From positions 96,001 to 160,000 of the IMG/VR virus record IMGVR_UViG_3300045988_131228: 64,000 nt of DNA. One strand, given 5' to 3'. The number at the start of each line of letters is the position of its first letter. The stretch's first letter is position 1. Positions 1 to 9,582 of the stretch are shown piece by piece. The notes under the pieces are model-generated. The model saw nothing but the letters and a program-made list of their open reading frames with translations, ran no database searches and was not told the origin of the DNA. The position numbers and the translations under genes were made by a program. This DNA comes from a virus.

Positions 1-1097
1 CTGATGGTACAGTTCTTCCATATTGTATCGGTTCTGCTTATGTATCGGGTGTTGCTTTTGATGGATTACTTAGAAGTCAACCTGGACTAAAACCTGAGAA
101 ATGGCAATGTCATAATAATATGATTACAAATTATCAGAAGAAAGGTAAAGGACATTGGGGAGCTGGTGCAGAAAGAAATACATTCCAGATTCTTTTTAAC
201 ATTATTAAAGGTGCTACAAAAAATAGTCAGAGTCTATTCCAAGGTTGTACATCATATAATTTCCAATACTCTGCTTCTATTCAATCTGCGGATGCACATA
301 CATACTTCCCTGTTACAAATGCACAGGCACAAAATATTCTTGTTGGTTCTTATGTATCAGTTGGATATGGAGAATTAAAAACTGATACTAATACAGTAAA
401 TATTGATCGTGGAGTAAAGAATATGCACAAATATGCCGATGATGTAAAAGTGTTGCGTATTGAAACACTTGATGAGAATAATAAAGCTGTATATCTTGAC
501 ATTGAAACAGGATTTAATACTACTCCTGTTAAGTTATCCGATACGGTAAATGCATCCATTACTCTCTCATCTATGCATTGGTGGTCTGGAACTACGGATA
601 AAGTTATTGGTAGACATGATGGAAGTTATGTTTCTAACACTGATGGAAAACATCCATATAGAGTACAGGGTCGTGAGTATGCTGTAGGTGGATATATGGT
701 TGCATCTGATACAGTTATGGATTTCCAAAGCGATTATAGCAAGAAAGTATATATTGCTCCAAAAAGTCTTGCTCATAGTTCTTCTGACGCAACAATTAGA
801 AGTAAATATACATGCATTGGTACAATTCCTGCTAATTCAGATGGAAAAGGATCTGATTATTGGATTGGTGACATTTCAGTTGATGTTAATACTGGTGGAT
901 GGTTCCCATCTGCAAAAGGTTCTTCAAATTCCCAAGGTTGGGCTGATATGTTATACGCAGGTGGTACAAGCACTTCTGGCACAAGAGAATATCTGATGGG
1001 CGGTACTCTTGGGGTTTGGTCTAATGCTGGTTCTGCTTTCCTCCATGCCAGGGGCTGGATTTCTTGGGTTGATTGGTTCGTTCTCGGTGCCGATTAA
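1..1097 (+). CDS. DGR target protein, putative tail fibre / receptor-binding protein (5' end outside window)
   Basis: Frame open from nt 3 to TAA 1095-1097 (track ORF 120..1097 begins at an internal ATG). Last virion-type gene before the lysis genes. Extreme C-terminus (998-1090) is the variable copy of the repeat at 2686-2778. Confidence 0.8.
   Translation, partial: DGTVLPYCIGSAYVSGVAFDGLLRSQPGLKPEKWQCHNNMITNYQKKGKGHWGAGAERNTFQILFNIIKGATKNSQSLFQGCTSYNFQYSASIQSADAHTYFPVTNAQAQNILVGSYVSVGYGELKTDTNTVNIDRGVKNMHKYADDVKVLRIETLDENNKAVYLDIETGFNTTPVKLSDTVNASITLSSMHWWSGTTDKVIGRHDGSYVSNTDGKHPYRVQGREYAVGGYMVASDTVMDFQSDYSKKVYIAPKSLAHSSSDATIRSKYTCIGTIPANSDGKGSDYWIGDISVDVNTGGWFPSAKGSSNSQGWADMLYAGGTSTSGTREYLMGGTLGVWSNAGSAFLHARGWISWVDWFVLGAD
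998..1090 (+). repeat. DGR variable region (VR)
   Basis: 93 nt aligning without gaps to 2686-2778. 15 mismatches, all opposite an A in the downstream copy. Ends 7 nt before the stop codon. Confidence 0.85.
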
Positions 1098-1131
1098 AAA
1101 CAGGTTGTCCAAGGGGTGAATTTTTGAACGA

Positions 1132-1146
1132 ACTTGCGAAGCAAGT
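1132..1146 (+). promoter_or_regulatory. Hairpin ACTTGC-GAA-GCAAGT about 40 nt downstream of VR (candidate DGR target-recognition hairpin)
   Basis: Perfect 6-bp stem with 3-nt loop read directly. Its role is inferred from position relative to VR. Confidence 0.35.
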
Positions 1147-1156
1147 GAAGAGAAAA

Positions 1157-1178
1157 AAGAGGGGACTTCTCCCCTCTT
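1157..1178 (+). terminator. GC-rich hairpin (9-bp stem AAGAGGGGA/TCCCCTCTT, loop CTTC) after the tail-fibre-like gene
   Basis: Stem-loop read directly. A-run upstream and a weak T/A-rich tail downstream. Could act as a terminator and/or as the DGR cruciform element. Confidence 0.55.
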
Positions 1179-1262
1179 AATAAAAAAGAAAGAAGGTAAC
1201 TACTTATCAAAGAAATATGGTCACAAGAACGAGTAAATATATTTAACGATTCTGTAGATAAA

Positions 1263-1715
1263 ATGATTAATGGTTTGAATCAATATCAAGCTATTGCATT
1301 TACAGACGGTGCATATTCGCAAAATAAAAATAAAGGTGGATATGGCATTGTTTTATTTACTCAAGACAATAAAGAAACTTATGATAAAGTATTTCGTTGG
1401 AAAACACAATCTCACCAACAAATCATAAAACTTCATAATGTCGGTGCTGAATGTGAAGCTGTAAAATTTGTTGTTAAGAAAGCTATCGAAAAAAATCTTC
1501 AAAAAATCACTATATTTTATGATTATGAAGGAATACTTAAATGGCTCACAAGAGAATGGAATGCAAATCAAGAATATACTAAGGATTATGTAAACACTAT
1601 GTTACTATACTCAAAACAAATTCAAATAGGTTTTGTAAAGGTAAAATCCCATTGTGGAATAACATACAACGAATTAGCAGATGAGATTGCAACAAACGCA
1701 TTATTAAAACCTTAA
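1263..1715 (+). CDS. RNase H (type 1, RNase HI fold) family protein
   Basis: AFTDGA, GGYG, ECEA, IFYDY and VKSHCG..NELADEIA match the D-E-D-H-D catalytic layout of RNase HI. Lies between DGR VR and TR. Confidence 0.8.
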   Translation: MINGLNQYQAIAFTDGAYSQNKNKGGYGIVLFTQDNKETYDKVFRWKTQSHQQIIKLHNVGAECEAVKFVVKKAIEKNLQKITIFYDYEGILKWLTREWNANQEYTKDYVNTMLLYSKQIQIGFVKVKSHCGITYNELADEIATNALLKP

Positions 1716-1780
1716 ACAGAGAATTAATCAAGAGTGTGAAAGCACTCTTATTTTATTGTACAAATTTAGGAGGAAACCAT

Positions 1781-2658
1781 TTGGAAGAACATAATGAAGC
1801 AAAATATATTGTTTATTGTCATACCAACAAAATAAATAATAAAAATACATTGGTCAAACTTGTCATACATTAAAAATCAGATCTGGTAAGGATGGATGTC
1901 GGTATCATGCATGTGCATATTTTTGGAATGCTATTCAGAAATATGAATGGGATAATTTTGAGCATGAGATTTTATTCGAAGATCTTTCTAAGGAAAGTGC
2001 TGATAGAATTGAAAAAATATTAATTCAAACTTTTAAAACGCAAAATTCTAACTATGGATATAATATTCAGAATGGTGGCACATTTGGGAATACTGCCCCA
2101 CCAGAAGATTTGACTGGTAAACAATTTGGTCGGCTTACTGTCATTGGTAGGGATTTCTCAATTAATAAAGAAGTTAGATGGTTATGTCAATGTAGTTGCG
2201 GTAATCCAGAATTAGTTAGCGTGAGTACACATAATCTCAATAGATGTTATACACAGTCATGCGGTTGCTATAGAAAAGAAAAAGCAAAACAAGATAGTAC
2301 TATTCATGGAATGACTGGCACAAAAATTCATAATAAATGGTTATCTCTTATTGCTAGGGAGAATGTTTGCAATGAATGGAAACAAAACTTTATGAATTTC
2401 TATGATTGGGCGATGTCTCATGGATATGAAGATAATTTATTTTTATGTCGTATAGAATTAGATAAAGGATTTAATCCAGATAATTGTATATGGATGACAA
2501 AGAAAGAGTACATAAGAAAAAATCAATCAAAATCGTATACATATGATGGTAAGACCATGACTCTTCCAGAATGGGCTAGTTTATATAATTTGAAAACAAA
2601 AACTTTAGAAGCCAGATTGAATAGAGGTAAATCTATTGAAGAAGCTTTAAGTATGTAA
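1781..2658 (+). pseudogene. GIY-YIG homing endonuclease, reading frame broken in the A5 run 1841-1845
   Basis: AGGAGG-N7-TTG 1781. N-terminal piece KYIVYCHTNKINNK (GIY) stops at 1871-1873. The second frame, open from 1843, continues YIGQT...NIQNGG and joins track ORF 2110..2658. One extra A would restore NNKKYIGQT. Confidence 0.75.
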
Positions 2659-2685
2659 AATAAGTATTAAACGGTCTTACACTAC

Positions 2686-2778
2686 GGGCGGTAATCTTAG
2701 GGATAGGTCTAATGCTGGTACTGCATACCTCAATGCCAGGAGCAGGATTTCTTGGGATAATTGGTACAATCTCGGTGC
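2686..2778 (+). repeat. DGR template repeat (TR)
   Basis: Non-coding copy of 998-1090. Carries A at all 15 mismatch positions. In the VR frame it reads GGNLRDRSNAGTAYLNARSRISWDNWYNLGA. Confidence 0.85.
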
Positions 2779-2906
2779 GGAATATATTTAAAATATTTAT
2801 TCTTTAGTAGTGTGTTTCGTACTTGTAAAAAAGTATTTAATCGAAAGATTAACGTAACCTGATGGTTAAAATTATTTTCATAAACCAACCTCGCTAACAT
2901 AGGAGG

Positions 2907-2926
2907 AACTATATTCTAATATAGTT
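2907..2926 (+). other. Perfect 8-bp hairpin (AACTATAT-TCTA-ATATAGTT) in the TR-RT spacer
   Basis: Read directly. Lies in the about 265-nt non-coding spacer that in characterised DGRs forms the structured, self-priming part of the DGR RNA. Confidence 0.35.
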
Positions 2927-3044
2927 GGGCTTAGTAGTATTGACGAAAAGCCTTTTAAATATAATCGTGTATACGATATATGGATTGATAAAATATACTA
3001 TCTAATATTTATTTTATATACAAAAAAATAAAACAGGAGGTATT

Positions 3045-4245
3045 ATGCACGAAGAAATACTGTAAAAATATCGACATTACAAATCGTGATTTAATTTCAA
3101 ATGCAACATATCGTTGTCTAGCAGACAAATATAAACGTAACGATACACTGGAATTATTATCCGATATTTCTGGATTAAGAAAATGTCAAATATACAACAT
3201 CTATTATCGGTACGGTAGAAAAGCAATAAGACCATTTGTTGAAATTCTAATAACTGTAATTCGTTCAGAACTTATCAGCAAATCTATATCATTTCCACCA
3301 ATCTGGTACAAAGAAAAGATTGATCCTTCTTCTCATAAAATCCGTAATATAGGAATCCAACATGTAAAACAACAAATATATGATTATATTGCAATTGAAG
3401 GACTTAAACCATTATTATGTCGCATAGGCGTTCATCAATATGCTTCTATCAAAGATAGAGGATGCTTAAAAGGCTCTCGTATAATACAAAGATGGATGCG
3501 TAATAAATCTCTTAAATATTTTGCTAAACTGGACATTCGTAAATGTTATCCATCCATTCCACAGGATAAGTTAATTCAATTCTTAGAAAAACATATTAAA
3601 AACGATATGTTAATGTGGCTTATCAAAGAACTTGTTAATAGCTTTGAACAAGGCTTATCTATTGGCTCTTTTCTTTCTCAATACCTCTGTAATCTGTATC
3701 TATCCCAAATATATCACTTTATAGGACATCTACACAAAGTAAGAAGACATAAAGATGGAACTAAGTCTTCTATTTGTCTTGTATATCATAGATTGTTCTA
3801 TATGGACGACATATTAATGATTGGAACATCAGCTAAAGACATGCATAAAGCAGTCAAGGAAGTTATTAAATATTGCAAATCTCTTGGTCTAAAAATAAAA
3901 GAATCATGGTTTGTACAGAAAATGTCATTTGTTGATAGAAAATGTGATGGATCATTTATTGATATGATGGGATTCCGTATTTATAGAACTCATATTACTA
4001 TTCGTAGACGAGTATTTAAAAGAATTCGCAGAATAGCTATACGAATATGGAAACGAATAAAGACTCATCAAAAAGTTTTAGAATCTCATGCAAGAAAAAT
4101 AATCTCCTACTGGGGATTGTTAAAAAATAGTAACTCAGTAAAAGTAATTCAAAAATATCATGTAAAAGATATTATGAAAATCTCTAAGAAAGTGGTGAAA
4201 GAATATGACAAAATCTCGCTTTATGGAAAAGCAGCCTTCTGTTAA
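3045..4245 (+). CDS. DGR-type reverse transcriptase (frame discontinuity within the first 7 codons)
   Basis: IGSFLSQ at 3661-3681 and YMDD at 3799-3810. The frame is open from 2992 but has no ATG/GTG/TTG before 3496. An SD-preceded ATG at 3045 is one nt out of frame and stops at 3063-3065. Confidence 0.85.
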
Positions 4246-4558
4246 GGTTGTTGAAAAAGATAAGGTATACGCATACGTCTGTCTAAATGAAACAGAAGTT
4301 ACAGAAAATCATGTTAATGATAGAGAATCTGTTTCTATAACTATGTATGAATATGACTACAATGAAATCATTGAAGATATTGGTGTTCTGGATATTGATG
4401 ATATCAAAGCCAATCCAGAAAAATATCTCAATTATGAAAAAGCAGTTGAAAAGACTGACAAAGAACGTATTGCAGAACTTGAAGCAATGAATGCAGAACT
4501 GTCTACTACTGTAGATAGTATCTTAACTGATGTATTACCTACCCTTATGGGTGCGTAA
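4205..4558 (+). CDS. hypothetical protein (acidic, C-terminal coiled coil)
   Basis: GGTGA-N6-ATG start. Overlaps the RT 3' end. No motif recognised. Confidence 0.6.
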   Translation: MTKSRFMEKQPSVKVVEKDKVYAYVCLNETEVTENHVNDRESVSITMYEYDYNEIIEDIGVLDIDDIKANPEKYLNYEKAVEKTDKERIAELEAMNAELSTTVDSILTDVLPTLMGA

Positions 4559-4596
4559 TTATATAACTCTATTAATAGAAAGGACATAGAAAGGAT

Positions 4597-4779
4597 ATGA
4601 AAGATATGACAACATTTATTGCACGTATGATTATGAAAGAAGCAGACAAAAGTATTGAAGCAGGTCAGAAGAAATACAGAGCGTATTTTGTGAAAACTAA
4701 ACTGTATAAGAACTGGAAGGAAGATGTAGATACTATTCTCATTACAGATGGTTATGATGATGTAATTGTTGAAGCATGA
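4597..4779 (+). CDS. hypothetical small protein
   Basis: 60-aa ORF followed by two hairpin terminators. Confidence 0.5.
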   Translation: MKDMTTFIARMIMKEADKSIEAGQKKYRAYFVKTKLYKNWKEDVDTILITDGYDDVIVEA

Positions 4780-4806
4780 ATAAAAAGAATGTATAAACTT
4801 TTGTCG

Positions 4807-4831
4807 AAGAGGTGAGATACCTCTTATTTTT
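4807..4831 (+). terminator. Rho-independent terminator (AAGAGGT-GAGAT-ACCTCTT + T-run)
   Basis: 7-bp stem plus ATTTTT read directly. Confidence 0.6.
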
Positions 4832-4848
4832 ATGCTCAAATTTAGAGG

Positions 4849-4881
4849 GAGTCTTGTGTTATAGCAAGGCTCTCTATTTTT
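4849..4881 (+). terminator. Second tandem hairpin + T5 run
   Basis: GAGTCTTG/CAAGGCTC stem (one G-T pair) followed by TCTATTTTT. Confidence 0.45.
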
Positions 4882-4900
4882 ATGAAAATGAGGTGATTTT

Positions 4901-6610
4901 ATGGCTAAATATACACAGTCACAAATGAATATTTTAATTAAAATTATCGCCGCTGTAGAAACTGGTGGTCAAATATATGGTCAAGCTAGATATGATGATT
5001 ATACTCCTGCTTATGCTAATTGTTCTAATGAAACATCATGTACAATTGGTGCTTTTCAAGAGTATGGAAGTTTAGCAAAAGGATTATTACAAGAAATTTT
5101 AAATACTTATCCAACAACTTTCAGAAAGTACGATAATGCAGGAATTGAATCAGATTTACAACGTGCATCATGGACAGGTTATAGTCCTGCTAGAGGTTCT
5201 GCAAAAGCTAAAGCAATTCAAGCAATTATCAGTTCTCCTGATGGAATTAAAGTGCAGAATAATCGCATTCAAAAACAAATGGAATCTCATATCGCATTCG
5301 CTCAGAAACAAGGTGTATCTGATGTGGATGCTCTTTTTATGTGTGCAAACTTTATTCATCAAGGTGGTCAATCTGCTTGTACACGTATCTTAAAGAAAAC
5401 GCAAAAGCCATATACATTAGATCATTTATATGCAGCTTGCAAAACTGATACAGGTAATCAAGTTGGTGCTTATAAGACAAGACAACAAAAAGTATATGGT
5501 TGGCTAAAAGAAAAAATCAGTAACAAAAACATATCTAATAACAACTCAAATAATACCCTACAAGGAAGTGATAATATGACAACAGAAAAAGCAATTAATG
5601 CTCTTATTGCTACTGCTCAGGCGGAAATTGGATATATGGAAAAGAAATCTAATGCACAACTTGATGATAAAACAGCAAATGTTGGGGATGGTAACTATAC
5701 AAAATATTGGAGAGATTTAAAGCCGTCATGGAATGGATCTGCTTGGTGTGCTGTATGGGTATCGTGGTGTATGTATAAGACTTTTGGACTTGAAACTGCG
5801 AAAAAATTACTTAAACATGAGAATGATTTCCCATATGTTTATTGCCCTACTCTTGGCGCAAGATTTACAAAATATGCTAATCCTCAGCGTGGAGACATTG
5901 TAATCTTCTATCGCAATGGAACATTTGCTCATACTGGTATTGTTACTAAAGTTGAGGGTGATAAGTTCTACACAATTGAAGGAAATACAAATAATGGAAG
6001 CACGATAATAGCCAATGGAGGATCGGTATGTTCCAAAAGTTATAATAATTCAAATCTTCCAGGCACTAAATTCTGTCGTCCAGATTACTCTATCGTTAAA
6101 TCAATTATGAACTCATCTTCTACTTCAAAACCATCCACATCAACCTACAAAAAATGGGTAGGTGCAGCCACAAAAGATGGCACAGATGTATTTGCAAATC
6201 CTACAGGAACATCAAAATTATCTACATATCCAAAGCTAAATAAAGATAATTTAGTAGATGTAATTGGTGTGTCTGGAACACGTTATCAAGTGAAAATTGC
6301 AGATAAATTTGTAGGATATGTTGAAAAAACCAACATCAAAGATCCTAATGCAGTTGTTACAAAACCTAGTGCTTCTACAAGTAAACCTAAATATCCATTT
6401 GTCGGAGAAGTAACCGCATCTGAGTTAAATGTGCGTACTGGCGCAGGAACAAATTATGGTAAATTATCATCTTATCCAATTCTTAAAAGAGGGAACTTAG
6501 TAGATGTGTTAAAAGCCAAAAAAGATACATCTGGAAATAAATGGTATCAAGTTAGAATTGCAGGTAAGTACACAGGTTATGTATCTGCTCAGTACATTAA
6601 GAAGAAATAA
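4901..6610 (+). CDS. Endolysin: N-terminal domain of unassigned family + CHAP amidase/peptidase + two SH3b wall-binding repeats
   Basis: CHAP Cys/His context (GSAWCAVWVSWC ... FAHTGIV). Two C-terminal SH3_3-like repeats (..RYQVKIADKFVGYVE; ..WYQVRIAGKYTGYVS). GAGGTGA-N4-ATG start. Confidence 0.85.
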   Translation: MAKYTQSQMNILIKIIAAVETGGQIYGQARYDDYTPAYANCSNETSCTIGAFQEYGSLAKGLLQEILNTYPTTFRKYDNAGIESDLQRASWTGYSPARGSAKAKAIQAIISSPDGIKVQNNRIQKQMESHIAFAQKQGVSDVDALFMCANFIHQGGQSACTRILKKTQKPYTLDHLYAACKTDTGNQVGAYKTRQQKVYGWLKEKISNKNISNNNSNNTLQGSDNMTTEKAINALIATAQAEIGYMEKKSNAQLDDKTANVGDGNYTKYWRDLKPSWNGSAWCAVWVSWCMYKTFGLETAKKLLKHENDFPYVYCPTLGARFTKYANPQRGDIVIFYRNGTFAHTGIVTKVEGDKFYTIEGNTNNGSTIIANGGSVCSKSYNNSNLPGTKFCRPDYSIVKSIMNSSSTSKPSTSTYKKWVGAATKDGTDVFANPTGTSKLSTYPKLNKDNLVDVIGVSGTRYQVKIADKFVGYVEKTNIKDPNAVVTKPSASTSKPKYPFVGEVTASELNVRTGAGTNYGKLSSYPILKRGNLVDVLKAKKDTSGNKWYQVRIAGKYTGYVSAQYIKKK

Positions 6611-6646
6611 TTTTAGCTTTTTGCGGAAAGGATTGAGGGATATGAG

Positions 6647-7213
6647 ATGATTAGTACATTAAATGAGATAAATTCACAGGGGATATTTACAATTATCCTC
6701 TGTGTAGTATTAGTTCTTCTATTGATCGTAGAAGGTACTAAATTATGGAAAGGAACGCTTGAATCACTTGACTTGAAGTCTGGTAAGGAATTAAGAGAAA
6801 ACGCCGTAAATGAACGACTAGACACATTAGAAAGCGAATTAGAAAAAGTCAAGACAACATTTCTTGATAATCAAGAAACGTATCATGGACAAAGTATTGA
6901 AATTCGTAATAATCTTCAAGAGAATCAAGAGAATTTGAGTAAACAAATGGCAGAATTAAAACAACTATTTATCAATAAAGAAATTGATGATATGCGTTGG
7001 GAAATGTTAGATTTTGCAAGTGCGATTATGAATCATCGTAGATGCAGCAAAGAACAGTATGATCATGTTATTGATACATATGTTAAGTATGAACAGATAC
7101 TTGAAGAAAATCATATGGAGAATGGTCGAGTAACATCTTCTATGGAATTTGTAAATGATAAATATAAAAAATTAATGAGTGTTGGGTTTGATCACGATAA
7201 ATTAGAAGAATAA
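6647..7213 (+). CDS. Holin-like membrane protein (BhlA/UviB-like: N-terminal TM helix + coiled coil)
   Basis: One N-terminal hydrophobic helix (IFTIILCVVLVLLLIV), then a charged coiled coil. Lies immediately after the endolysin. Confidence 0.5.
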   Translation: MISTLNEINSQGIFTIILCVVLVLLLIVEGTKLWKGTLESLDLKSGKELRENAVNERLDTLESELEKVKTTFLDNQETYHGQSIEIRNNLQENQENLSKQMAELKQLFINKEIDDMRWEMLDFASAIMNHRRCSKEQYDHVIDTYVKYEQILEENHMENGRVTSSMEFVNDKYKKLMSVGFDHDKLEE

Positions 7214-7220
7214 ATAATTA

Positions 7221-7258
7221 TAGGGTAATCAGATTAATTTCTGGTTACCCTATTTTTT
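7221..7258. terminator. Bidirectional terminator between convergent units
   Basis: 12-bp stem TAGGGTAATCAG/CTGGTTACCCTA (one G-T pair), T6 downstream on +, A/T-rich on the other side. Confidence 0.65.
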
Positions 7259-7262
7259 ACGC

Positions 7263-7466
7263 TTACATACTGATTACTGGAATATAAACAAGATTTGTAT
7301 TCTTATTGTTACAATTTTTTAAAACGGCACGATATAACATCATGGCTTCTTTTTCAGATATCACGTTCCCAAATGTAGTAAACTTTATATTTGGATTTAT
7401 ACGATAAACTTCATTAATAAGATTTTTTGTATTATTATTTTCATATTTTAATTGATTTGTGTTCAT
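7263..7466 (-). CDS. hypothetical 67-aa protein, autonomous transcription unit (moron-like)
   Basis: Own consensus promoter (7489-7517), SD GGAGGT and flanking terminators. No motif recognised. Confidence 0.55.
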   Translation of the reverse strand: MNTNQLKYENNNTKNLINEVYRINPNIKFTTFGNVISEKEAMMLYRAVLKNCNNKNTNLVYIPVISM

Positions 7467-7488
7467 AGCATCTTACCTCCATGCTTAC

Positions 7489-7517
7489 ATTATACAAACA
7501 TTTGTTCTGCAAGTCAA
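7489..7517 (-). promoter_or_regulatory. Sigma-70/SigA-type promoter TTGACT-N17-TATAAT
   Basis: Minus-strand -35 at 7517..7512, 17-nt spacer, -10 at 7494..7489. About 25 nt upstream of ATG 7466. Confidence 0.65.
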
Positions 7518-7534
7518 GAGAATAAAAATAATTT

Positions 7535-7573
7535 AGGACAGTTGAGTAATGATACTCTTCTGTCCTATTTTTT
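7535..7573. terminator. Hairpin AGGACAG...CTGTCCT + T6 (A-run on the opposite side)
   Basis: Read directly. Insulates the small gene from the recombinase transcript. Confidence 0.55.
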
Positions 7574-7597
7574 ACGTCTGTAAATTGTAAATAAAAT

Positions 7598-7635
7598 AAT
7601 ACCCCACGGTATGATTTCTCACACCATGAGGTATT
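7598..7635 (-). terminator. Imperfect long hairpin after the recombinase gene
   Basis: AATACCCCACGGT / ACCATGAGGTATT arms, U-rich tail on the minus strand. Confidence 0.45.
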
Positions 7636-7664
7636 ATATATCGTTTGGACATTAATAGAACTCT

Positions 7665-9518
7665 TTATAGTTCTACTGCGACATCAATGATTGCGTCAGA
7701 CCATTGATTCTTACGTAAGTATTTACCAATAGACTTTCTGTAATCTTGTGCCATTTTATAAGTAATAACGAAATTTAAGTTAATTATTTCGCCTTTGTTT
7801 CTGCGATAGCTGCCTGTGCTGCTATGGACAGAAGATAGGCTATCATCATTACTTAATATCTGAGCAGAATAATTATTTTTGCGTCCTTCTACTTGTGTGT
7901 CTAAATATATGTCTGAGTTCTTATCATAATCATTTCCTAAACTAATATACCATCTAAATTTATTGTTATCAAGAACAAGAACTCTTGAAATGAATTTATC
8001 AATGATATATTTTGGCAACTTAGGTTGTGAAAAATCTATAACCTCATTCATGGCTTGTTTTATAACTTCTATCTTTTTTTCAATTGATTCTGGTTCATCT
8101 GATTCAACTTCGTCAATTGTTAATTCAGAATTTAATATAGAAATCTGTTCAGTGATCGTATTTTTTGATTCAGCAAACTCTTCTTTTGATATTTCACCAT
8201 CTGCTCTCATTTCTATTAAGTTCTGTAATCGTTTTTGTAGTTTTTCTATTTTTAATTCTGTTTCCTTGATATTCTTTTTATTTGGTTTTACATCTTCTTC
8301 ATAGTTTTCAGATATCATTTTTAATGCTAATATAACAGATTCACCTTTATTCTTCCAAATATGTTCTATAACCATTTTTGCCATCATATCAAGTTTCCAA
8401 TCTGCAACCATTCTAATTCCACAATATCCATCCGTATCTAATCCGTTCTTTTCACGAAATTGTTTACTTCCATAATTAAGCTGTCTTTGGCATTGATATC
8501 CATATACTGCTTCACCAGTCTTATTGGTTCTCCATTTATTCCTTCTAAAAGAACTACCACAATTACATAGAAGTTTTTTACTCCAAAATTCTTTTACGTC
8601 TTTTTTACCAGATAATTTATCGCCTACAGATTTTGTACGTCTAGCGATTATTTTTTGCACATCATCCCATTTATTTTGTGGTATAATAACAGGAATGTTT
8701 ACTTTCTGATACATATAACTGTCTCTATCAAGATTATTAATTCTCTTTTGCTCAAGATAGTTATTACTATGTGATTGACCATAAGCAAGCACACCTGTAT
8801 ATGTTGATTTTTTTAATATTCTCATTACACGTTCAGCAGACCATTTTATATCTCCACTTGCATTCTTACGTTGCTGAACAGATAATGACTTAGCGATTTT
8901 CATTGATCCAAGACCATCTAAATACATATCATAAATCATTCTAACTGTTTCAGCCTGTTCTTCGTTAATTACATAGGTAATTCCAACACGATCATATCCT
9001 AAGATATTTCCATTACCATACAATGAGCCATTTTCTCTACTGATTTTTTGTCCTGCTTTAACACGATCAGAAGTCTTTCGGCTTTCTTCTTGTGCTAATG
9101 TAGCCATCAATGTAAGTCGTAATTCCCCATCACCATCCATAGTCCAAATATTATCATCTACAAAATATACTTCTATATTATATTTGCTTTTGAGTTCTCT
9201 GGTATATACCAAAGTGTCTACTGTATTTCTAGCAAATCTACATACCTCTCTTGTTACTATTAAATCAAATTTCCCTTTTTTAGAGTCTTCAATCATCCTT
9301 AAAAATCCTGGACGTTTCTTTGCTTGAGTACCTGTTATTCCTTCATCAATATACTTTTCAACTAAATTCCAATTGGGGTGGAACTTTAATTGATCGTCAT
9401 ACCATTGCATTTGGTTTTGTAATGCTGATAATTGTGCTTCATGTTCAGTTGAAACACGTCCATAAAAAGCAATATTTCTTGGTCTATTTCTATCGAGGGA
9501 CGTTATATAATTATCCAT
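7665..9518 (-). CDS. Large serine recombinase (phage integrase)
   Basis: N-terminal resolvase domain (IAFYGRVSTEHEAQ, catalytic Ser). Large C-terminal recombinase domain with a Cys zinc ribbon and coiled coil. Start moved to AGGAG-preceded ATG 9518 (track TTG 9533). Confidence 0.9.
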   Translation of the reverse strand: MDNYITSLDRNRPRNIAFYGRVSTEHEAQLSALQNQMQWYDDQLKFHPNWNLVEKYIDEGITGTQAKKRPGFLRMIEDSKKGKFDLIVTREVCRFARNTVDTLVYTRELKSKYNIEVYFVDDNIWTMDGDGELRLTLMATLAQEESRKTSDRVKAGQKISRENGSLYGNGNILGYDRVGITYVINEEQAETVRMIYDMYLDGLGSMKIAKSLSVQQRKNASGDIKWSAERVMRILKKSTYTGVLAYGQSHSNNYLEQKRINNLDRDSYMYQKVNIPVIIPQNKWDDVQKIIARRTKSVGDKLSGKKDVKEFWSKKLLCNCGSSFRRNKWRTNKTGEAVYGYQCQRQLNYGSKQFREKNGLDTDGYCGIRMVADWKLDMMAKMVIEHIWKNKGESVILALKMISENYEEDVKPNKKNIKETELKIEKLQKRLQNLIEMRADGEISKEEFAESKNTITEQISILNSELTIDEVESDEPESIEKKIEVIKQAMNEVIDFSQPKLPKYIIDKFISRVLVLDNNKFRWYISLGNDYDKNSDIYLDTQVEGRKNNYSAQILSNDDSLSSVHSSTGSYRRNKGEIINLNFVITYKMAQDYRKSIGKYLRKNQWSDAIIDVAVEL

Positions 9519-9532
9519 GTTATCTCCTTTCA

Positions 9533-9582
9533 AAAATAAAGCCTATTTTATATACTATTATATATAAAATAAGCCTTATTTT
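9533..9582. repeat. Two related A/T-rich palindromic sites (AAAATAA(A)GCC(T)TATTTT) bracketing the recombinase promoter
   Basis: 9566-9582 is an 8+1+8 perfect palindrome. 9533-9549 is a shifted copy with 6-bp arms. Centres are about 33 bp apart. Confidence 0.45.

Follow-up and report, generated by a model that had tools for sequence, protein, structure and literature searches.

Evidence for an Avd-less diversity-generating retroelement with two inserted genes in a large phage of gut Clostridia

Diversity-generating retroelements (DGRs) that act on phage receptor-binding proteins are a well-documented type of element and are abundant in the gut. In the prototype, the DGR of phage BPP-1 (gene order mtd-avd-TR-brt), adenine-specific transfer runs from a template repeat (TR, 134 nt in length) to a variable repeat (VR) at the 3' end of the receptor-binding gene, the TR lies directly upstream of the reverse transcriptase (RT) gene on the same strand, a structured spacer separates the two, and the RT carries the (I/L/V)GxxxSQ motif. 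The VR of BPP-1 has a G+C-rich 3' end with a structured element after it (Guo and co-workers are said to have described this hairpin in 2011). A cryo-EM study of the BPP-1 DGR RNA found that a duplex between the region upstream of the TR and the spacer, together with a small stem-loop, makes up the 'cPRT Stop' needed for cis-primed reverse transcription, and such duplexes were predicted in 207 Avd-containing DGRs in the BPP-1 RNA study. Here we describe a locus that resembles BPP-1 in its adenine-specific relation of TR to VR, the place of the VR, the order and strand of TR and RT, the structured spacer, the RT motif, and the G+C-rich VR end followed by a structured element. It lies in a 64,000-nt stretch of viral DNA (IMG/VR record IMGVR_UViG_3300045988_131228, positions 96,001 to 160,000; the window, hereafter, is this whole stretch) and is, with high confidence, a genuine DGR of a large phage of gut Clostridia, with an Avd-less cassette that holds two inserted genes.

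In the curated survey of Wu et al. 2018 (PMC5758913), accessory-less DGRs (Architecture A) account for 29% of 372 curated DGRs, and no RNase H domain occurs in DGR RTs. Architecture A1 consists of target, TR and RT on one strand without avd, HRDC, MSL or CH1; the window's cassette has the same layout and its compact relatives (L020-L061) match it exactly, the difference being that in the window's clade two genes are inserted inside the cassette. Among prevalent families of gut Firmicutes phages, too, DGRs are reported to be common and active (bioRxiv 10.64898/2026.01.26.701711). The present locus is like these and the crAss-like phage DGRs in belonging to a human-gut phage with a Clostridia host and a probable tail-fibre target, and the crAss-like phage cr55_1 encodes a related RT (28% identity). 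It differs from them in that identity to the window's RT reaches no more than about 31% among cultured phages (nearest in Butyrivibrio phages Arawn and Idris and Lactobacillus phage LBR48), and in that its lineage of about 176 kb is unannotated in GenBank (MT835469, a 176-kb phage genome from human faeces, about 90% identical over the DGR region). The evidence for the host, Clostridia of the human gut, comes from the assemblies that hold relatives of the target or the RT (for the RT, those of Lachnoclostridium, Butyricicoccus and other Clostridia). The features at the centre of the locus are the following, in coordinates of the window.

3-1097, + strand: 3' part (364 codons) of the target gene, encoding a putative tail-fibre/receptor-binding protein (phrog_17147, 2.7e-53).
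998-1090, + strand: VR, a 93-nt ungapped match to the TR with mismatches only at TR adenines.
1083-1097, + strand: VR 3' boundary, G+C-rich CTCGGTGCCG followed by ATTAA, with a non-A mismatch at 1091.
2686-2778, + strand: non-coding TR, intergenic, between the endonuclease stop (2658) and the RT gene.
3049-4245, + strand: predicted DGR RT gene, 398 codons with an apparent ACG start (Pfam RVT_1, 1.5e-17; IGSFLSQ; YMDD).

A first-pass annotation of the window, made from its letters, had aligned the end of the tail-fibre-like gene by hand with a non-coding stretch downstream, and its 93-nt indel-free alignment, its list of 15 mismatches and its count of 22 template adenines proved exact when the two repeats were compared base by base. 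The alignment of VR 998-1090 with TR 2686-2778 is 93 nt long and free of gaps, and the mismatches fall at VR positions 1006, 1011, 1015, 1017, 1032, 1037, 1039, 1044, 1053, 1056, 1069, 1071, 1078, 1080 and 1081. At all of them (15/15) the TR has A and the VR has C, G or T; 15 of the 22 TR adenines are substituted and none of the C, G or T of the TR is, i.e., within the repeat the computed re-alignment shows mismatches at template adenines alone. Were 15 mismatches placed at random, the probability that all would hit the 22 adenines is C(22,15)/C(93,15) = 2.2e-12, and an independent repeat search returned this pair as the longest direct repeat of the first 8 kb. Codon position 1 or 2 holds 21 of the 22 TR adenines and the TR read in the VR frame has five AAT codons, an arrangement that is the classic design of a DGR template. 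The TR does begin 27 nt past the endonuclease stop, as had been noted. The extent of the VR (998-1090, 31 codons) also stands, with the amendments that its reading frame begins at 999 (998 is the final base of the ATG codon preceding GGC) and that the 31 codons are the last ahead of a final Asp codon and the stop. Weak homology between VR and TR continues to 1096, with a single non-A mismatch at 1091 (VR C, TR G) that marks the 3' boundary of the VR, where the TR departs from the VR (GCGGAATAT vs GCCGATTAA). A comparable G+C-rich VR end, followed by GATTAA or GATTGA, was found in all clades, and it is a candidate for an end of homing like the initiation of mutagenic homing (IMH) site. No second VR for this TR was found anywhere in the 64-kb window.

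The RT gene follows the end of the TR by 270 nt on the same strand, and its open frame runs unbroken from 3046/3049 to 4245 with all catalytic motifs. Besides RVT_1 it matches PHROG 1423, and IGSFLSQ (3661-3681) and YMDD (3799-3810), both reported by the first-pass annotation, can be read from the sequence at these positions; GLSIGSxLSQ is unchanged in an alignment of 13 relatives with identities down to 39%. A profile built from this alignment was searched against all PDB sequences, and its best match was a 328-aa 'Reverse transcriptase' (entries 8ub7-8ube, 66 bits, E = 3e-17), followed by an unrelated 224-aa RT (35 bits) and group II intron RTs (26 bits or less), with no retron or Abi RT among the PDB matches up to E = 1. 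We infer from the 328-aa length, the entry series and a cryo-EM preprint that 8ub7 is the Bordetella DGR RT, the PDB code itself having no match in the literature; the BPP-1 enzyme would then be the closest solved relative of the window's RT, which at 398 aa is longer than the 328 aa of BPP-1. On this sequence evidence, the RT is assigned to the DGR type, and the earlier claim that its motif sets it apart from group II intron and retron RTs agrees with the gap between 66 bits to 8ub7 and 26 bits or less to group II RTs.

A quite different origin of the same parts, namely an ordinary duplication of a gene fragment that has since diverged, next to an RT from an unrelated retroelement (group II intron, retron or defence RT), is improbable in the extreme. 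The RT does show weak, sub-threshold NCBIfam/PADLOC similarity to group II, Drt3a, UG17 and retron models, which is expected for any RT of the superfamily. However, the NCBIfam scores are far under the cut-offs (53 bits vs 300 for the group II model, 36 vs 235 for the retron model), the best structural relative appears to be a DGR RT, and an Rfam scan of positions 1-8000 at E <= 1 returned nothing except a chance snoRNA match, with no intron RNA, retron msr/msd or other Rfam family. A duplication would also have to account for mismatches confined to adenines (P = 2e-12) that recur independently across related loci. As a separate observation on the RT gene, in L015 a 394-aa open reading frame (ORF; 7165-8349 of that locus) sits at the very end of the gene and replaces its last dozen or so codons; judged by eye from its sequence, it resembles a TnpB-type (IS605 family) protein.

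To place the pair among its relatives, IMG/VR was scanned with the RT and 60 loci were fetched (labelled L001 onward). Nearly all of those that hold both the target 3' end and the RT contain a VR/TR pair with A-only or near-A-only mismatches. In nine genomes of a sister clade with near-identical TR, the VR is polymorphic at 23 of 25 A columns and at 2 of 71 non-A columns, the two A columns without variation being past the 3' boundary. Within the window's own clade, in which the RT starts with ACG, three genomes with identical TR (L002, L003 and L005) vary in the VR at 17 of 19 A columns and at none of 64 non-A columns. This variation of the VR at A columns while the TR stays constant shows that the lineage diversifies at the population level, and we infer that the window's own DGR may be currently active. 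The VR is therefore not invariant, a point on which the first-pass annotation had staked its reading: related genomes sharing a TR vary almost only at the A-templated columns, and every outcome that it had named beforehand as decisive fell on the side of a DGR. In a comparison of the window with L006, L002, L013 and L016, the TRs of close relatives proved to be themselves mosaic (the 3' half of the window's TR equals that of L006, and the 5' half differs), and the VR tracks the TR within each of these genomes. Such mosaics suggest recombination within the TR, to which the neighbouring homing endonuclease possibly contributes.

The target gene runs past the left edge of the window, and its full-length homologues are 591 aa. 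It has 1660 homologues, some with collagen repeats and some from Blautia wexlerae and Lachnospiraceae assemblies, and it lies just upstream of the endolysin gene. An AlphaFold 2 (AF2) model of its last 200 aa, computed from 61 diverse representatives, reached a predicted local distance difference test (pLDDT) score of 89.6, compared with 28 for an earlier AF2 model of the 364-aa fragment from a shallow alignment. In a viral library the model matches predicted phage tail fibres, including that of the crAss-like phage cr55_1, and also an entry annotated as 'Treponema denticola variable protein 1' (E = 1e-4, TM 0.6); a weak local PDB match over 51 columns was obtained with the DGR variable protein TaqVP (5vf4; rmsd 2.2, E = 5). 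Identification of the target as a tail fibre is thus supported by the model, and together with the collagen repeats of the homologues and the site upstream of the endolysin gene this makes the earlier label 'tail-fibre-like' a reasonable one.

Several results weigh against the reading of the locus as a genuine DGR with a receptor-binding target. The model of the last 200 aa has no PDB fold match below E = 1, and a C-type lectin domain was found neither in Pfam nor in PDB, with single sequences or with a 9-member profile. Two foreign genes and a terminator-like hairpin (1730-1749) lie in the 1.6 kb that separate the VR from the TR. An exact-TR search of viral contigs returned no second genome with the window's TR. 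Finally, no ATG, GTG or TTG stands in the RT frame near the ribosome-binding site; the ATG at 3045 belongs to another frame, in which it opens a six-codon ORF that ends with TAA at 3065 and overlaps the RT start.

With regard to the RT start, the Shine-Dalgarno sequence AGGAGG occupies 3035-3040 and the ACG codon (3049) lies 8 nt past it. In most relatives the RT starts as ATG-AAA-CGA-TAT-TGT (MKRYCKN), and the ACG start is another difference from BPP-1. ACG stands at the homologous codon, 7-8 nt after AGGAGG, in at least nine of the fetched genomes (including the window, L002-L006, L013 and L019), and L016 has ATT at this codon, immediately past an in-frame TGA, so that non-AUG initiation is forced in L016. 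A sequencing-error frameshift at the RT start was considered and rejected: at least six independent genomes have the same sequence, a further two have ACG behind a different upstream sequence, and L016 has ATT. As the ACG start is common to independent genomes, it is not a sequencing error. Translation of the RT most likely starts at this near-cognate codon, and such a start would keep RT levels low.

It might be argued that the element is a true DGR that has become a fossil in this phage, i.e., that with the change from ATG to ACG no RT is made, the cassette has been split and the VR is frozen. The start codon itself (ATG in most relatives, ACG here), the visible decay of the neighbouring endonuclease gene and the existence of relatives that have a VR-like region yet no TR-RT at the site are all in keeping with such an end. 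We regard it as unlikely, because the 398-codon RT frame is intact with its catalytic motifs complete, because the ACG lies 8 nt past a perfect AGGAGG in at least nine fetched genomes while L016 is bound to a non-AUG start, and because the genomes of the ACG clade with identical TR have VRs that differ only at A columns (17/19 vs 0/64). Unless ACG arose repeatedly, these VR differences indicate that homing went on after the start codon had changed.

The reading as a genuine DGR also has to accommodate the two genes that separate the VR from the TR.

1263-1715, + strand: RNase H gene (Pfam RNase_H, 5.5e-14), not in the cassettes of the compact clades.
1781-2658, + strand: gene for a free-standing GIY-YIG homing endonuclease (PHROG homing and HNH endonuclease matches).

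In more distant relatives (RT 39-56% identical) the cassette is compact, with the target stop, about 90 nt, the TR, a spacer of about 200 nt and the RT in succession, and no ORF between target and RT. An RNase H gene between target and TR was found only in the close clade (RT at least 90% identical), and the endonuclease gene only in part of that clade, independent of the RNase H allele carried. The distribution points to both genes as clade-specific later insertions into a compact ancestral cassette, and both are probably dispensable for homing. The interval between VR and TR, which holds avd in BPP-1, is thus occupied here by RNase H and endonuclease genes; the element is without Avd, and neither Avd nor HRDC families were detected among the cassette ORFs or the 68 small ORFs of the window (64 kb, E <= 0.01). 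By its gene content, the element is classified as an Avd-less DGR of the accessory-less Architecture A. The first-pass annotation had called the cassette non-canonical, which is correct insofar as two extra genes lie inside it; these amount to clade-specific insertions into a catalogued Avd-less type. A promoter scan gave nothing above chance.

The RNase H gene is probably a passenger. It is kept in all of the about 20 close-clade genomes, with or without the endonuclease, and the homologues listed for it from a phage collection (MT835469 aside) belong to large Staphylococcus and Bacillus phages, where they are ordinary RNase H genes. It is the sole RNase H homologue detected in MT835469 and the sole one among the small ORFs of the window. 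A role as a DGR-specific protein is not supported, given its absence from the compact cassettes and its generic phage homologues, and it is retained here as a rival of low probability: the gene might have been recruited in the place of avd as an accessory that removes the TR RNA from the RNA:cDNA hybrid. Its site between target and TR (that of avd in BPP-1), its retention regardless of the endonuclease, its status as the only homologue in both MT835469 and the window's small ORFs, and the lack of an RNase H domain in the DGR RTs of the curated survey (PMC5758913) would all suit such a recruitment. Nevertheless, the same RT family diversifies its VR in compact clades that have no RNase H in the cassette, the nearest annotated homologues are generic and come from Staphylococcus and Bacillus phages without a DGR, a terminator-like hairpin follows the gene, and it is neither overlapping nor coupled with TR or RT; a recruited accessory is therefore improbable, and we keep to a passenger gene.

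The endonuclease gene has a TTG start at 1781 and a frameshift at an A5 run (1841-1845), which is A6 in the intact copies (L006, L011 and L016) and A7 in L013, and the window's copy is without one of the two C-terminal repeats of about 48 aa found in L002 and L006. Decay of this kind is usual for homing endonuclease genes. The gene is absent from L001 and seven further close relatives, which show a clean junction, and in MT835469 the segment corresponding to 1717-2660 of the window is missing. A 39-nt direct repeat (74% identical) is present at 1736-1774 and 4812-4850, spanning the 3' arm of the terminator-like hairpin and the downstream TTTAGGAGG-like stretch; one copy lies after the RNase H gene, bordering the endonuclease insertion on its 5' side, and the other after a 60-aa ORF and upstream of the endolysin gene.

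Around the TR and after the VR, the following structures were predicted.

2678-2685, + strand: 5' strand of a duplex bracketing the TR, TACACTAC, pairing with GTAGTGTG at 2807-2814.
2779-3048, + strand: structured spacer RNA, with a consensus fold and compensatory changes.
2819-2836, 2837-2852 and 2856-2867, + strand: spacer hairpins of the consensus fold.
2927-2952, + strand: conserved spacer motif, GGGCTTAGTAG...GAAAAGCC.
1113-1176, + strand: structured element after the VR, shared by all clades and also by relatives that have no RT at the site.
Parts of the post-VR element, + strand: GGGGTGAAT at 1113-1121, hairpin ACTTGC-GAA-GCAAGT at 1132-1146, and hairpin GAGGGGA-CTTC-TCCCCTC at 1159-1176.

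Five sequence variants of the bracketing duplex, all of them fully paired over 8-9 bp, were seen across 113 loci (TACACTAC/GTAGTGTA, TGTGTTAC/GTAACACA, TACGACGCA/TGCGTCGTA, TACGGCGCA/TGCGTCGTA and GGTAGAGCA/TGCTCTATC). On an alignment of 12 sequences the duplex is 100% paired, with changes on both sides in 6 of its 8 pairs, and the hairpin adjacent to it likewise covaries. Seven helices, made up of the duplex, three hairpins, one long-range helix, a stem and a further helix inside that stem, were compared with controls in which the helix partners were slid by 1-3 columns. In the seven-helix structure 93.5% of cells were paired vs 34-50% in the slid controls, and both-side changes were seen in 17 pairs vs 2-5 (one hairpin is under-counted, as the window's clade is two columns out of register in the alignment). 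The spacer of about 270 nt (about 200 nt in the compact relatives) is longer than the 140 nt of BPP-1, and the TR of 93 nt is shorter than the 134 nt there. A duplex that brackets the TR and is followed by a stem-loop resembles the 'cPRT Stop' of BPP-1, here in an Avd-less lineage, and reverse transcription may be primed in cis from this RNA. It extends to an Avd-less lineage a duplex described in Avd-containing DGRs, and thereby bears on Avd-independent mutagenic homing.

The post-VR element consists of two hairpins and GGGGTGAAT, whereas BPP-1 has a single hairpin at this place. Its first hairpin covaries, its fold z-score is -3.1 as DNA, and no T-tract follows it on the + strand. The element remains beside the VR despite the insertion of the RNase H and endonuclease genes, and also where TR and RT are absent from the site; since it stays with the VR in the absence of TR-RT, it belongs to the target side. 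It is likely a cis-acting target mark for homing. Two folds can be drawn for it, one with the hairpins side by side and one nested, with base pairs between the GGGG of GGGGTGAAT and the CCCC of the second hairpin. In compact clades (e.g., L023, 5612-5690) an outer stem (GGTCGT/ACGACC and CACCTTG/CAAGGTG) encloses the element and covaries between clades, and this stem is missing in the window's clade.

Taken as a genuine DGR, the locus may work as follows. An RNA comprising a short 5' flank, the TR and the spacer of about 270 nt would be transcribed, and its fold would loop the TR out by the 8-bp duplex (2678-2685 with 2807-2814), the remaining spacer forming several hairpins. The RT encoded downstream would copy the TR into cDNA, misincorporating opposite template adenines, and the cDNA would replace the VR at the 3' end of the tail-fibre gene, so that recoding could reach about 15 of the last 31 codons and alter the receptor-binding surface. 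The 3' limit of the replacement would be the G+C-rich VR end, and the post-VR element would probably serve as the mark of the target. A more far-reaching proposal is that the DGR has been remodelled in three parts, with the RNase H, the only one of the phage, processing the RNA:cDNA hybrid, the RT throttled by its ACG or ATT start, and targeting by the hitherto undescribed element of GGGGTGAAT and two hairpins free of Avd; we consider this combination improbable, and if it were true it would provide a tractable Avd-independent homing system with cis and trans needs unlike those of BPP-1.

Downstream lies an acidic ORF (4205-4558, 117 aa, pI 4.4) that shares 41 nt with the end of the RT gene; in every clade there is such an overlap, of 17-65 nt. 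A 60-aa ORF (4597-4779) follows, both lying between the fibre/DGR unit and the endolysin gene, and no family match was obtained for either. The acidic ORF resembles CH1 (160-169 aa) in charge alone. In 12 related phages its homologue stands directly after the target, about 105 nt past the stop, with no RT between them, which indicates that it is an ordinary phage gene; it was accordingly dropped as a CH1-like or novel accessory gene, and a supposed likeness to XkdW had no Pfam support. TR and RT are an insertion between the fibre gene and this ORF.

The 12 RT-less relatives (L115-L119, L121-L123, L125-L127 and L133; region at about 3760-4010 in each) contain neither TR nor RT within 4 kb, and their VR-like last 31 codons are very different from one another. 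Either TR and RT are located elsewhere in these genomes, or they were lost after diversification. The value of the locus lies in the comparative series to which it belongs, in which one RT family occurs in compact Avd-less form and in a form split by two genes, beside relatives without TR-RT at this site. All three forms keep the post-VR element, and the series separates features linked to the VR (the post-VR element) from those linked to the TR (the bracketing duplex and the spacer hairpins).

As to the rest of the window, the endolysin gene (4901-6610) encodes CHAP and SH3 domains, and conservation with the closest relative does not extend to its first 220 or so residues. On the opposite strand lies the gene for a 622-aa serine integrase (7665-9533). 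No tRNA genes were found in the window, and the remainder is a minus-strand replication module with ribonucleotide reductase, NAD-dependent ligase, DNA polymerase and primase-helicase.

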